64,000 bases of DNA from Podarcis gaigeae (taxonomy: Eukaryota). The translations under genes were made by a program, and so were the position numbers. Positions 3,217 to 56,060 of the stretch are shown piece after piece. The stretch lies in the NCBI GenBank assembly GCA_964106915.2, contig OZ066923.1; one strand, written 5' to 3'. Below the pieces are notes generated by a model. That model saw nothing but the letters and a program-made list of their open reading frames with translations, searched no databases and was not told the origin of the DNA. Numbering within the stretch: position 1 is the stretch's first letter; the number at the start of each line of letters is the position of its first letter.

Positions 3217-3378
3217 GATAAGAGGTTTGCCTCGGGGAAATACCAGGATGTCTACATGGAGCTGAACCACATCAAACAGCGGTCAGAGCGAGAGATTGAG
3301 CAGCTGAAGGAACACCTGCGCCTGGCCATGGCAGCCCTGCAAGAGAAGGAGATGCTGCACAACAGTATCGGCAAGTAG
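3217..3378 (+). CDS. TRIOBP: TRIOBP last coding exon
   Basis: ctacag|GAT...TAG; [53 protein letters not shown]. Confidence 0.93.
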
Positions 3379-4057
3379 ACGAGAGCAGCTGTCAGGCCTG
3401 ACAAGTGAATGTCTGGTGGAGCTATGAATGAGCAAGGGTGCAAAAGCAGGGACAGGATTTGAGAGGCCACCTTTGCTTCCAGCTCAGGGGATGGCAGTTA
3501 TATTGGGCATGGTGTCTCTGCCTTCTGCTTGCCAGTGATCAAAACTAGTCTTAACATAAAACAATGTGAAGCTATTCCTTCAAGAAGAGTGTTCTAGGAG
3601 GGTGCTATTTTCTTGCCTTCATTCTCATGTGGGTGTAGGTGTAGCATGTGGCAGCACACATGTTAGAGGTGAGTAGGGTAGTTCATACCCCAAAATGGAT
3701 GGGGCCATTCCTTTTTTCTCTCCCCCTTTTCCATGTTGCCCAACAGGCTCCAGGGGAAGGGACAAATTGCACTTGCCACAGGTCTGAATTGCCAACTTTT
3801 TGAAGCTAGGCCTAGAGCAGCAGGCTGCCCTCCCTGCATAAGCTCAGAATCGGCCTGCAGAATTGTTCTGGTGACCCAGGTATCCAAAAATACCAACATT
3901 AAGATGTGAACACTTCCTTTGTTCTCGGCAGCAAGAGAAGCACAATGTTTTCCCCTCTCTAGTTTTCCTTTGGACTCCAACTGCTATCAGCCCCGGCCAA
4001 CATGCATGGATGATGGGAGCTGTATTCCACAGTGCTATCTGTGCTCTACAGGATCTA

Positions 4058-4320
4058 CCGTATTGGCCTGAATATAAGCCACACTTTCCACCTAAATTCT
4101 GATTGTGAAAAGTTAAAGTGCAGCTTATATTCATGACCTTACGGTATCGCTGCTAAAACAACTGCCCACGAGGGTCATGGGGGACAAAGGCGTGCAGTGC
4201 ACTCAGAATTGAGCGCCAGCCACCACCCCCTGGGATAGAGCCAGAAGGTGGGCCGCACCTGCAAATAAGTCTTGAATTTTAAAGCTTTTGCGGGTGTGTC
4301 TTGTATTCAGGTCAATACGG
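4058..4320. mobile_element. Tc2/pogo-like MITE in the TRIOBP 3' region
   Basis: TIRs ccgtattggcctgaatataag / cttgtattcaggtcaatacgg, TA on both sides; a second TIR-like end at about 4125-4144. Confidence 0.7.
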
Positions 4321-5248
4321 TAAATATCCTGTGCTTCCATAAAATGGTTCTGAGTCTAAAACAAATTTATAAACAAGAACTGTTAAACCTGTGGTGTGAT
4401 GACTGCCATCTCCTAAGCCTTGCACATTTTGGTATGTTTCAGGTGTAAGTCAGTTTACCTAACTTTGTCTGTTTGCTCCATAGGTTAGTCAGCTTTGTGT
4501 ACCTTGCTTTGGAGGACAAAGCTGTATCCTAGCAACCAGCATCCCCCTCCAGGAAATGGACCAAGCCTCCATCAGACTATCCATCACGTGCACCTACATA
4601 ACTCGGCGTGTTTGGGGCTGGATCCTACTACTTGCACCTTCTTTGGGATTTTATACATGAAAATATATTTTATATGGGGGTGGGGTGTTATATTTTAAAA
4701 TCCTGTATTACGTTTTTAACCAGCAGTTGACAAGAGAAGTGAGCCAGAGATTCTCCCCAGCCTTCTTTTAGTCATAACAGAATCCTTGTTCCAGGTCCTT
4801 GAATATATCTGAAACCACACATGACCTCTTGCTTCCAATTCTCTTCCAAGCAAAGAGACAAAATTTACACATGTTCCAAGTTTATGGCAAGTCTCCTTGG
4901 ACGGACAATGTTGATCCACAGTGATCCATGTTTTGAGATGCACTGTGCCAGGAGGAGGAGGATGTTCTTCAGATGAAACTGGTTTTGTTCCGAGAATATG
5001 GGTTGGTTTGTTTTTTGTTTGGGACCAGCCGTTTGTTTTCATGTACTAAAAGCAAAGGCAGTTGTTTCCCCCCTTATGCCGATGAAACGTCTATGCATCC
5101 TACTGCAAAGTCAGCACCGGCCACATTCCAGAAGCTAGTCTTCCACCTGTGTGTTCCTGTGGGGAGGGATGTCACTGCTAATGTCGCCAGAGCCAAATGA
5201 TGAAGGTGGCTGAATTTTCTTTCTTTCTGCACAATTATAAACTAACTT

Positions 5249-5254
5249 AATAAA
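5249..5254 (+). terminator. Candidate TRIOBP polyadenylation signal
   Basis: AATAAA about 1.9 kb after the stop, followed by a GT-rich tract (gatggtgttgcttt). Confidence 0.5.
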
Positions 5255-5336
5255 AATCCTCAAATACCAAAGATGGTGTTGCTTTATGGCGTGGGCAAAA
5301 GAAGTTAACATGAATTCTTTACAGTTTAAGTTAAAA

Positions 5337-5677
5337 GTAAAGGTAAAGGTACCCCTTGCCAGACTCTAGGGTTGTGCGCTCATCTCACTCTATAGGCCGG
5401 GAGCCAGCGCTGTCCGCAGACACTTCCAGGTCACATGGCCAGCGTGACAAGCTGCATCTGGCGAGCCAGCGCAGCACACAGAAACGCCGTTTACCTTCCC
5501 GCTGGTAAGCGGTCCCTATTTATCTACTTGAACCCGGGGGTGCTTTCGAACTGCTAGGTTGGCAGGCGCTGGGACCGAACGACGGGAGCACACCCCGCCG
5601 TGGGGATTCGAACCGCCGACCATACGATCGGCAAGTCCTGGGCGCTGAGGTTTTACCCACAGCGCCACCCGCGTCCC
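5337..5677 (-). mobile_element. Sauria SINE
   Basis: tRNA-like head GGGACGCGGGTGGCGCTGTGGG...GGTTCGAATCC on the minus strand, (ACCTTT)n tail; near-identical to copies at 24374, 39966 and 58719. Confidence 0.9.
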
Positions 5678-5683
5678 ATTACA

Positions 5684-5924
5684 AAAAAAAAAAAAATCCT
5701 TCCAGTAGCACCTTAAAGACCAACTAAGTCAGTTCTTGGTATGAGCTTTCGTGTGCATGCACATGTCTTCAGATACACTGAAGATACATTGTTGTATCTG
5801 AAGAAGTGTGCATGCACACGAAAGCTCATACCAAGAACTGACTTAGTTGGTCTTTAAGGTGCTACTGGAAGGAATTTTTTTTGTTTTGACTATGGCAGAC
5901 CAACACGGCTACCTATCTGTAACT
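5684..5924 (+). mobile_element. Short non-autonomous Penelope-like element with fold-back (inverted pLTR) structure
   Basis: About 90-bp inverted arms (about 5685-5777 and 5793-5883), terminus gactatggcagaccaacacggctacctatctgtaact, 11-bp direct repeat gtcccattaca at 5673-5683 and 5926-5936; related copy at about 55245-55444. Confidence 0.75.
5794..5831 (+). ncRNA. Minimal type I hammerhead ribozyme motif inside the Penelope-like element
   Basis: Stem I gtat(5794-97)/atac(5828-31); core CTGAAGA(5798-5804) plus extra A; stem II gtgtg-catg-cacac; GAAA(5820-23); palindromic AGCT in place of stem III; UC cleavage site after C5827. Confidence 0.7.
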
Positions 5925-8900
5925 GGTCCCATTACAGTTAACTTAAGCCCTGGTAAATATTCAACTTCTGCATTCGCAGAAGAGCGATTTCTACTCTGGT
6001 ATCGTCATAATTGGCACTTATCTGTAGCATGCTTGACTGTTATGTACATATTGTAAAGCAAGAAACAATAGTTCTTGCAGATCAATCTATGCATTTATAA
6101 ACCTCACAATCACCCCAATGGGCTGGTGACATTAACAAAGTAGATCCTTGCAGAAAGCGGGATTTAACCCCTCACTGCTCATCTGATGGGTGGCAGGGTT
6201 CAATTCTGCTTGGTCGTCATTTCCCACTTGCCATCATTGACAGGTGAATGGGGCCATCTACCTGCCAGTCACAATGATGATTGACGTGGAGCATTTGCAG
6301 GGGGTGAAATAAAGGTAGACAAAATTGGGGGTGGGTATCTTCAGTACCTGGTAATGAGGTAACTCACAAAGGAAATGCCATTCTTGTCTAGCATGGCAGA
6401 AAGCTAGTGCCCTTCATTTATATGTTTTTAAAATAAGTCATTTACACTATTATCTCCACCTCTTGCCTTAATAATAAGATTTGTGATGGTGCTAGGCATT
6501 AAAATCCTGAGTTTTAAAACAGAATTATCTTAAATATGAACCACTATTAGTAATTGCCACAATTACTGCTTAAATTTCCCTTTTCAATCGAAGTTTCTTT
6601 TTAAGAATGCAAATTTGCTCTTCAAAATGGCTGTCAGTGCCGTCTTAGGCATGCCTACTCGGAAGTAAGAAACTGATCTCAACAGCCTTTCTCCTCCGCA
6701 AAACGCATGTAGTACAACAACAGCCCATTAAAAAGCCGTTTCCGATCTTATTTCTGTCACCGAGGTGCGCTCCAAAAAACGTCTGGTGCATCGGTGGAGA
6801 TACAAGAGGAAGCCACTAGTTCTGTGGCAAACCACAAAAAGGGAAGTAAAATACCTACCGCGAGAAATCAAAAAGAAAACCACTGTAGTAGCTTCGATCA
6901 GCGGTTACAACAAAGGCAGCGAGATCTTGCTTACGGTTGAGGATAACGAAATCTGCAAAAAAAATTGTTATATTGTGCGTGCGCGTAATGTGGAGAGCAA
7001 GAAGGGGCAATCCTTGCACAGTGCAAGGAGGCGAGTTCTCGAGAGGCGCCGTGCATTGGCCAGCCAGCGGCTGCTTACGGCAATCCTATCCCGTCGCATT
7101 TTTGAGAGCTCTACATTTGCTGCTGCCCATCAGAGGGCACCCAGCAGCGTGCCGACTACATTTCCCACAAGCCACGGCTCGGGCATCCTACGGTGGCCCA
7201 GAGCGACGCGAGAGAGCGAGCTTTCGCCTCGGCTGTACCCTCTTTAAGAATTAATCAGCTGACTGATGAGAGGCTCTTCAAAGCAGCTATGACTACTGTC
7301 AACAGAGGGCTGTCAATGGGCTATTGTGCACGGGGCTGCTTCCTCCATGGTCCTTTTTCAGGATCATTCTCAACTCTTCACTAAACACTCGCCCAGCCCT
7401 CATAAAGCCACTTTCATGAGAACAATTTTCTCAGCCCACAATTTTTTTAAAAAGCGCGATGTCACCTTTTGTCGTTGTCATTATTTCACTAAAAACACTC
7501 CATCTTTGCCTTTTTAGAAAAACACCCATTGCAGTTTTGCCTTTTTACTCTACCTGCTGCATCGATAACTTTCTGTTCCTACAGAAAAATCCACGCCCCC
7601 CCCCAAAAAAAATACTGGTTAGCGGGGCATTCAGAATTTACACAAATGCAATCCTCTCCCGTTAACAACGTTTCTGATACGTCAAGTCAAGAGGAAAGAC
7701 ACCTTAAAAAACGAGTTTCAAAACAACACGTTATCTACCCGCCGCTCCATCCCCGCACCCAAGTGTTAAGTTAACTCTCTTAACTTAGATGCAAAAACTT
7801 ATATATAGTTTATATACATGCACTCATCAGGATAGTGGTAAAGGGTGGAGGCTACTTGAAGGAAGACGATCCCGGAACTCTGTATCTTAGCAAAAAAGCC
7901 CCACACCCTTATCCAGACCGGGAATCCAAACAATGGAAAGGGGCTAGGTGTGTGCGGACGGGTCTCCTCGACCGTCCCCTGTTATCATTTCACTTTGGAA
8001 CTCCCTAAACAACTTAACCCGTGTTTAGTGGTGGGTTAACACTACCACGCAAGTCTGTAGCTCTCCCTCACTGAGCAGAATCATATCCGGACACGAGACT
8101 CCTTTTAAAATATTTAAATTAGTGTTTGCACTTATTCCAAGTAGACAAACATCAGTCCGATTGCTTTTGGAGGAAGAACTCTACTAGATAAAAACACTAG
8201 AAAAGATACGAGCATTTCAAAGATATTGACGTTTATTCGCCTGCCACAGCCATAGAACTGCAATCCCCATGATCATTTTTAAATAAAGCTAAAGGCAAAG
8301 CGCACATTTAAAAGCCTTACATTGAGCTGCGATGGGGTTGGGGGGATCCTATGAGGATGGGGGGAGGTGGAGACAGAGGTACCAAAGTGCCCGATTACAT
8401 ATACATATATTTGTTGCTAGTGTGCTCTCCGTGTTGCTAGGATCCCAGGTTGTTTTTATAATTCTTAACAAGTATTCTAGAGGTGCTTTTTACTTTCCCA
8501 CCCCGGAGTTACTCAATACCACAAGCCGTCAGATTGCAGCTCCGCATCTTCAATTTTGCATCCACAGCGCTTTTAATTAATATCTTTATTAAGGAAGAAA
8601 AAAATCTGAAGAGGGGAGATGGGGAAAAAACAACCTCAGTTCTTCCAGCAAGATGGCGATGGCACGTACATTTAATCTCCTAACAACAGTTAAGCACTCC
8701 CACAGGACTGGGAAATTAGGGTTAACACATCTAAAGAAACTGCCCTGCACCCCAGTTCGTCACCTACCTTTCCCCCCTCCCCGATAACTTTTGTCGAGAA
8801 AGTATTTTTAAGTAATAGGATCGACTCCACCTTGAAAACCCAAGGAGGAACAAAACAGCCTATGTAAATCTCGATAACATTTTTGTGGGGGTTCAAAGTG

Positions 8901-54779: not shown

Positions 54780-56060
54780 GGCAAACAACCTCTTTCTCGG
54801 CAAAGTTCTTCAGCGGGTAGTTGCTGCCCAGATCCAGGCATGCTTGGATGAGACTGCTTTTCTGGATCCAATTCAGTCAGGTTTCAGGCACTGAAACAAC
54901 ACTGGGCACCCTGTATGATTACCTTTATCAGGAGAGAGATGGGAGAAGGGTGATGCTGTTCTTCCCTTTGAACTCTGGTTTGCTTTTGATACCATTGAGC
55001 ATGGTATCCTTCTGGACCTTATGTCAGAATGGAAAGTGGGTGTCACTGTTTTGTGGCGGTTCCTCTCCTGTTTGGGTGGTCCACTTCAAAAAGGGATGCT
55101 TAGAATTATTGTTCAGTCCTGTGGAGCCTTCATTGTGGGGTTTCACAGGGATTCATCATATCCCTCCATGGATTTACTGAATCAGTGCCTGGTTGCAGTA
55201 AACAACTGGATGAGGGAAAACAACTGAAACTCAATCCAGTTAAAACAAAATAATTCCCCCCCCTTCCAGTAGCACCTTAGAGACCAACTAAGTTTGTTAT
55301 TGGTATGAGCCTTTGTGTGCACTTTTTGGAGTGGACCACCCAAACAGGAGAGGAACCGCCGCAAAACAGTGACACCCACTTTGCTGGAAGGATTTCCCCC
55401 GCCCCCTGACTATGGCAGACCAACATGGCTACCTACCTGTAACTCAATCCAGCTAAGTCAGAGATACTGCTACTAGGTGGTTCCTTGGTCCAGGTAGGTG
55501 ATGTGCAACTGGATCTCCCCACTGTATAATCAGATGCACAGATTGGGGATACTCTTTGTTCCGTTGCTGTGACCGGAGATGCAAATGGCATAGAATGCCT
55601 TCTTTCAGCTCTACCTGTCAGCCCAGCTATGACATATGGCTGGATTACTGCAATGCATTGTATGTGGAGCTGCCTTCGACAATGGTTTGGGGAAACTGCA
55701 GCTGGGGCAAAATTCAGCAGCCAGTTTATTGGTGGAGACCAGGTGCTTTGAACATGTAACACCAATTCTGGCTTGATTACAGAGGATACCAATGTGTTTC
55801 TTGGTTCAATTCAAAGTGCTGATTCTGACTTGTAAAGCCTTATACAGATTGGGATCCCATTTTCTACAAGACCCCTCTTCCCATACGAGCCTGACTGGAG
55901 CCTGAGGTCATCATCAGAGGCCTTATTCTGTGTTGTCCAGAAAGAGGTAAGAACAGGTCTTCTCAGTACTGGCTCCCACATTTGTGAGGTGCTTTCCCCA
56001 GAGTGGCTTGCCTGGCATCAACACCAATGTATTTCCATTGCCAGATGAAGCTGTCCTTTC
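54780..56060 (+). mobile_element. Old L2-like LINE RT fragment, interrupted by a Penelope-like insert
   Basis: Broken motifs SGTETTL, AFDTIEHGILL, VNNWMREN-LKLNP, LDYCNALYVELP, FKVL. Confidence 0.7.
55245..55444 (+). mobile_element. Second, rearranged Penelope-like short element
   Basis: ccttccagtagcaccttagagaccaactaag...ggtatgagc and terminus gactatggcagaccaacatggctacctacctgtaact match 5684-5924; flanking repeat aactcaatccag(t/c)taa. Confidence 0.75.

Follow-up and report, generated by a model that had tools for sequence, protein, structure and literature searches.

Minimal hammerhead ribozymes of reptilian Penelope-like elements (PLEs), and the inverted truncated copies, tails and target site duplications (TSDs) of such elements, are already published (PMC4209133, PMC8557442, PMC3846280). 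The minimal hammerheads of metazoan PLEs have no true helix III, are palindromic at positions 15.2–16.2, reside in the pLTR and number in the thousands as dispersed single copies (Cervera and De la Pena 2014, PMC4209133), a description that also applies to the motif analyzed here. Head-to-head insertions with an inverted, 5'-truncated pLTR, a one-sided tail of 30–40 bp and a TSD are described for the endonuclease-bearing (EN+) PLEs of the Neptune clade and for Pen2a_Av (PMC8557442, PMC3846280), and a Cys linker is common to Neptune and Nematis (PMC8557442). PAc, the Poseidon element of Anolis carolinensis, uses two internal start sites for reverse transcription, extends both strands and copies an unprocessed RNA template (Frangieh et al. 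2024, PMC11167929). No lacertid example of a PLE hammerhead was found in the literature searched, which included searches for Podarcis together with Penelope, and the open-access literature yielded no account of Penelope fold-backs in terms of a cap or start site or of two-ended priming (twin-priming).

The motif examined here lies in a 64-kb stretch of Podarcis gaigeae DNA (the window), downstream of the gene TRIOBP. It is very probably a genuine minimal hammerhead that rides as a passenger in a defunct stub, of head-to-head structure, left by a young Neptune-type PLE, where it is predicted to be enclosed in a 96-bp hairpin and unlikely to cut TRIOBP read-through RNA; the family, the intact parent element, the TSD, an empty site and the ends of the copies were directly observed.

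The fold-back stub and its hammerhead motif

Table 1. Coordinates of the stub, its hammerhead motif and the neighbouring features in the window
Feature	Position	Strand	Remarks
TRIOBP last main coding exon	3217-3369	+	spliced from GC donor to 4483; X1 contig piece 3215-3369
TRIOBP terminal exon / 3' UTR	4483-5271	+	X1 contig piece 4483-5271
Older SINE-like repeat	5334-5677	+	stub inserted at its 3' end; repeat read ends at 5677
Left TSD	5673-5683	+	11 bp; present once in empty-site contig of run X20
Left, inverted arm	5684-5782	-	short 3' end at about unit position 97
Second, degenerate hammerhead copy	5739-5776	-	2 substitutions; one breaks G10.1-C11.1
Arm junction	5778-5792	.	15 nt; short snap-back complementary to stem I
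Right arm	5793-5925	+	parent 5' end, hammerhead to long ('tail') 3' end, unit position 134
Stem I	5794-5797/5828-5831	+	4 bp
Hammerhead core CTGAAGA	5798-5804	+	
Bulged A	A5805	+	follows A9
Stem II	5806-5810/5815-5819	+	5 bp; G5806-C5819 = G10.1-C11.1 pair
GAAA	5820-5823	+	
AGCT palindrome	5823-5826	+	
Predicted cut	after C5827	+	
Parent ORF start, 11 codons (MADQHGYLSVT) of 910-aa ORF	5892-5924	+	interrupted at tail end
Right TSD	5926-5936	+	11 bp

A sequence-only reading of the window had proposed a minimal type I hammerhead at 5794-5831 of the plus strand, with the letters GTAT CTGAAGA A GTGTG CATG CACAC GAAA GC TC ATAC, perfect pairing in stems I and II, a stem III reduced to the palindrome AGCT and C5827 as the predicted cut site, and in each of these points it proved correct; AGCT occupies 15.1–16.1, and C5827 is H17. 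The conserved core CUGANGA...GAAA...UH is present together with both stems, as are the published features of minimal hammerheads, namely a bulge after A9, the G10.1-C11.1 pair and the palindromic 15.2–16.2 positions. A type I descriptor has this motif as its single match in the 64-kb window and finds it in 0/200 windows shuffled by a first-order Markov model. Stem II plus its loop (5806-5819) form a perfect 14-nt palindrome. Folded alone, the 38-mer has a minimum-energy structure of -6.8 kcal/mol that consists of stems I and II; this energy is not better than that of shuffled sequences (z -0.44). In the covariance-model check that had been suggested, an Rfam search at E<=10 returned no hammerhead family; the matches to miRNA hairpins that it did return scored below the gathering thresholds, reflect the long hairpin only and were rejected.

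Covariation was assessed on 21 older copies, obtained by removing 9 young-family copies from the 30 loci of a variant-core search whose pattern had a fixed core and first stem II pair. With kinship among the copies ignored, the inner positions of stem II were paired in 59 of 84 cells as compared to 41 after permutation (0/5,000), and stem I in 56 of 84 cells as compared to 48 (46/5,000). Pairing in stems I and II is kept across these older families, and the turtle motif carries compensatory pairs. When the core was compared with the rest of the unit within the young family, the 65 copies showed few changes, and most of those counted in the flank and in stem I were due to one subfamily site and to 5' truncation. 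The motif is therefore a conserved minimal hammerhead of its parent element, with predicted cleavage.

The motif is part of a head-to-head insertion of 242 bp (5684-5925), and the fold-back recognized earlier is real, with complementary arms at 5682-5777 and 5793-5888 that are 96 nt long and 96% complementary. The right arm is 98.5% identical over 134 bp to an intact parent element, L223, and the left arm retains a few bases of the upstream pLTR context of the parent. The older repeat into whose end the stub was inserted, which we take to be Sauria/Squam1, has three more copies in the window, at 79–95% identity. An empty site was recovered in a single contig of run X20, from a related organism, in which 17 letters of the SINE end (16/17 match) are joined directly to one copy of the TSD. 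Run X16 carries the insertion but is possibly from the same source DNA, and the single-cell run X21 has 0 reads on 5900-6400, so that it provides no coverage either way. Further downstream, in a contig of run X17, the sequence after 6114 resumes at 6107, an overlap of 8 bp, with about 475 additional bases in between. X20 also breaks at this point, and the additional bases look as if another insertion had occurred there in relatives. The same family has left another, older fold-back stub in the window (55238-55444), with a 10-bp TSD (about 55231-55240 and 55443-55452) and a truncated hammerhead. The centre of this second stub holds a 61-bp inverted copy of the host DNA at 55033-55093, a sequence arrangement that suggests a template jump onto neighbouring DNA.

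The Penelope-like family and the ends of its copies

The exact 38-mer is present in 9,021 copies in the 1.51-Gb genome, about 6 per Mb, a density at which one near a gene end is to be expected. The core pattern has 13,458 matches genome-wide, about two thirds of them exact copies, as compared to 23 for a reversed control, and a pattern anchored downstream of the motif has 16,261. Copies of the family are 97–99% identical to one another, and the family has probably been active recently. The parent L223 (G000:C17:77539500-77546500), to which the stub in the window is 95–99% identical, consists of a pLTR with a hammerhead, an open 910-aa ORF (L223:2003-4735, minus strand) and a second pLTR with a hammerhead, the two hammerheads being 3,010 nt apart. 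The ORF carries a CxxxxCxxC linker, which conforms to the CX2-5CxxC Zn-finger-like linker between RT and endonuclease, and a sister copy (L061) matches RVT_1 (PF00078) and GIY-YIG (PF01541). L223 accordingly has the organization of an EN+ PLE, a single ORF with RT and C-terminal GIY-YIG between pLTRs, and the family also displays the inverted, 5'-truncated copy, one-sided 30–40 bp tail and TSD of such elements. The assignment to a minimal type I hammerhead of a Penelope-like pLTR, made from the letters of the window, is supported by this parent, in both of whose pLTRs the hammerhead is found. At all 30 of the 30 GIY-YIG loci fetched, the unit lies 3' of the ORF in sense orientation, and residues 300–910 of the parent ORF are 68–69% identical to turtle proteins, the closest named matches. 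The Cys linker points to Neptune or Nematis, and it is on this linker that the Neptune-type assignment rests.

The unit of the parent is preceded, at a distance of about 30 nt, by a TATATA, and the first ATG of the long ORF follows the motif end by 61 nt; an intron between motif and ORF was considered and dropped, as it had no read support and the ORF opens without splicing. The genome also harbours older repeats, of at least two families, whose hammerheads have different stems I and II (L127-L156). Head-to-head pairs of 5'-truncated copies also occur at kilobase length, again with one long and one short end (L063, L064, L065). At another locus (L215), the 5' junction consists of several short tandem re-copies of the tail and the ORF start, a pattern that suggests repeated template jumps by the RT.

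The survey of copy ends used contig C1, in whose first 4.7 Mb 95 sites were selected by an anchor motif lying 3' of the cut site; they were taken from 30 loci of the downstream-anchor search and 40 fetched regions, with the last few of 100 listed sites omitted. The 3' ends fall into two classes, short (unit positions 79–107; 47/95) and long (129–134; 47/95), with 1 intermediate. The 5' ends are not sharp: 40/95 lie at -4 to +5, 23/95 upstream and 32/95 are shorter, and near the cleavage point there are 3/95 within 33–42, with 1/95 at the cut site. Among 29 close pairs, 26 are head-to-head and 2 have the same orientation, and 25 of the 26 head-to-head pairs combine one long with one short end. 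An extra G precedes stem I in 72 of the first 100 listed of 3,723 copies that have a non-template base there, where about 31–33 would be expected (p about 1e-15 against one third). At two upstream positions tested, no G excess was seen (12/100 and 21/100), and the flanking contexts of the extra-G copies are heterogeneous. A one-base-shorter subfamily or a variant of the parent context, tried as the source of the extra G, gave 0 matches; one position further up there is an excess of T (77/100) that is only partly explained. A transcript start at the hammerhead is not evident in the RNA runs, in which most reads crossing 5793 carry upstream pLTR and both strands are covered similarly.

The motif and TRIOBP read-through RNA

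The upstream gene, for which TRIOBP had been named as a candidate, is indeed TRIOBP: the exon upstream encodes the C-terminus of the Podarcis protein at 100% identity, and a contig from the putative RNA run X1 joins 3369 to 4483 and stops at 5271. The proposed poly(A) signal likewise stands, with AATAAA at 5249-5254, 545 nt ahead of the motif, and the transcript end 17 nt after it, which places that end 556 nt before C5827. The last intron of TRIOBP (3369-4483) has a GC donor; the spliced stop codon is in the terminal exon, and unspliced reading stops at 3378.

Were the motif active in place, as the sequence-only reading had suggested, it would cut TRIOBP read-through RNA after C5827 and aid termination or turnover. 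Pol II normally runs past poly(A) sites, the core and stems are intact, and the motif is in sense orientation 556 nt beyond the mapped transcript end; in addition, the Anolis PLE hammerhead cleaves with the help of a protein (PMC11167929). The proposed cut itself found no support in our analysis, and activity in place is extremely improbable. The motif is predicted to be trapped in the locus RNA because the mirror arm is transcribed earlier and, according to the folding, takes up the entire motif in pairing: the RNA of the locus folds at -169.6 kcal/mol (z -23), both stem I and stem II have a predicted probability of 0.000 at each of the 16 growing 3' ends tested, and forcing the hammerhead within this RNA costs 49 kcal/mol as an equilibrium prediction. 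The forced structure retains the outer hairpin, so that a cruciform with a folded hammerhead is possible in the model, at +49 kcal/mol. By comparison, in an RNA starting at 5794 the predicted probabilities are 0.65–0.75 for stem I and 0.96–0.97 for stem II. In the RNA 5778-5925 that of stem I is 0.0, so that in folding the junction by itself abolishes stem I. In the parent, the pentamer directly upstream was tried as a piece that sequesters the core and was rejected, stem I remaining at 0.62–0.72, and longer upstream context lowers stem I to 0.26–0.30 with 30 nt more and to 0.02 with 150 nt more.

Several further observations stand against cleavage in place. The locus has only one intact hammerhead in sense, hence no second copy for a dimer, and comparable PLE hammerheads did not cleave as monomers and were weak as dimers (PMC4209133). 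RNA runs X23 and X24, from a related organism that is about 1% divergent and possibly without the insertion, cover the last TRIOBP exon at 54–76x and positions 5948-6081, beyond the element, at 0 in the approximately 12% of each run that was read, and they contain no pile of read ends at 5827/5828, as far as standard RNA-seq with repeat reads from many loci can reveal. Moreover, the insertion is missing from the contig of one related organism, and any RNA reaching the motif would have been cut already at the poly(A) site. On the basis of these predictions and reads, the motif at this locus likely does not cut TRIOBP read-through RNA.

Formation of the stub and relation to known elements

The fold-back had been viewed as a mini-element; it is not a distinct family of such elements but a truncated by-product of a full-length one. 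A fold-back DNA transposon or MITE was rejected, as the arms are asymmetric, vary by locus and derive from an RT element, and there are no fixed terminal inverted repeats with a constant interior. That the 134-bp unit or the fold-back could be a self-propagating non-autonomous family (SINE-, retrozyme- or MITE-like), with the hammerhead processing its own RNA, might be argued from the very high copy number, from the many solo 134-bp copies with TSDs of their own, and from a preprint in which animal retrozymes are derived from pLTRs (10.64898/2026.07.22.740005). We consider this very improbable, given that junctions and arm lengths differ at every locus, and fold-backs are therefore made anew; that the unit is simply the first 134 nt of the parent, including its first 11 codons; that the stubs lack the upstream TATATA; that same-orientation pairs are so rare, hence no tandem arrays; and that the ends are not at the cut site. 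Alternatively, fold-backs might be formed by self-priming of a single cDNA or from an antisense template, with the pile-up of 5' ends caused by RT stalling at the hammerhead or by a splice acceptor. Snap-back pieces and palindromic centres at junctions are in accord with such an origin, ahead of stem I the parent has a sequence reminiscent of a pyrimidine tract followed by CAG, an intron of D. virilis ends at helix I (PMC4209133), and antisense self-priming has been proposed for a rotifer Penelope (PMC3846280). However, a simple snap-back cannot alter the second arm by a fixed tail, and all but one of the 26 pairs are long plus short; no upstream exon shared among stubs was seen, and the extra G is confined to one position. 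This origin, to which we assign a low but appreciable probability, concerns the formation of the stub only and is compatible with the family assignment.

In our preferred account of the passive stub, the parent would be transcribed into a capped RNA whose 5' end coincides with the first base of stem I or lies no more than about 3 nt from it, some 30 nt behind the TATATA. The RT/GIY-YIG protein would nick the two DNA strands 11 nt apart, and internal priming would use one site per DNA end, at unit positions of about 95–97 and 130–134, a spacing of about 36 nt. Each cDNA would reach the 5' end of the uncut RNA after approximately 100–134 nt, and the joining of the two cDNAs by snap-back or microhomology would yield a fold-back with one long and one short end. 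That uncut, likely capped templates are copied onto both DNA ends is suggested because it is at the first base of the ribozyme that the 5' ends pile up, often preceded by an extra G, rather than at the cut site, and because of the long/short pairs. We regard a capped start at stem I and two-ended priming as each moderately probable. In the parent, the ribozyme would likely have a role in weak, dimer- or protein-assisted cleavage, by analogy with other PLE hammerheads. It is also conceivable, if unlikely, that the RNA begins, capped, with the hammerhead, which would serve mainly as a dimerization module and whose palindromic stem II would pair two uncut RNAs for a dimeric RT/endonuclease that copies both ends. 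Two 38-mers co-fold through the stem II palindrome with a predicted -30.6 kcal/mol, as compared to 2 x -6.8 for the monomers, and such pairing would explain the one long and one short end in 25 of the 26 fold-backs; against it, the loop of the turtle motif is not palindromic, and a single RNA could serve both ends.

A single locus of this kind is of little weight; the value lies in the young family with an intact 910-aa parent, of which thousands of stubs appear to record the RNA start, the copying of uncut RNA and the different priming sites at the two DNA ends. What the Penelope hammerhead does and how inverted ends and tails originate are treated as open questions in PMC8557442 and PMC11167929; for these questions this family provides a Neptune-type test system, and the intact L223 makes the dimerization proposal testable. 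In addition, the 96-bp hairpins could give rise to double-stranded RNA in lizard transcripts.

Among the known hammerheads, that of Chrysemys picta bellii (PMC4209133 supplement) resembles the lizard motif in being of type I, with a 4-bp stem I, a CUGAAGA core, one bulged nucleotide and the G10.1-C11.1 pair. The two differ by compensatory pairs in both stems (PMC4209133), and stem II plus loop are a perfect 14-nt palindrome in the lizard, whereas the turtle loop is not palindromic. In contrast to other PLE minimal hammerheads, the lizard copies are almost invariant. Animal non-LTR retrozymes are likewise non-coding, related to pLTRs and equipped with a type I hammerhead (10.64898/2026.07.22.740005), but a retrozyme was rejected for this locus, since retrozymes are head-to-tail tandem units each with a hammerhead, and here the units are head-to-head with one intact motif. 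With the EN+ PLEs of the Neptune clade, the family shares RT, Cys linker and GIY-YIG in one ORF, a pLTR with the first codons, a TATA and an Inr-like site, an inverted arm shorter by about 36 nt and a TSD of about 10 bp; the lizard stub differs from the Neptune-clade insertions described in being minimal, with both arms comprising only the first 100–134 nt and no RT or endonuclease sequence. PAc belongs to another clade, and its ORF starts at stem II, as compared to 61 nt past the motif in the lizard (PMC11167929). It nevertheless has a hammerhead near the pLTR/ORF start, internal start sites that match the tail, an uncut template and no read ends at the cut site (PMC11167929), and the copying of uncut RNA from two sites onto both ends of one cut that we infer for the lizard family fits what is described for this Anolis element (PMC11167929).
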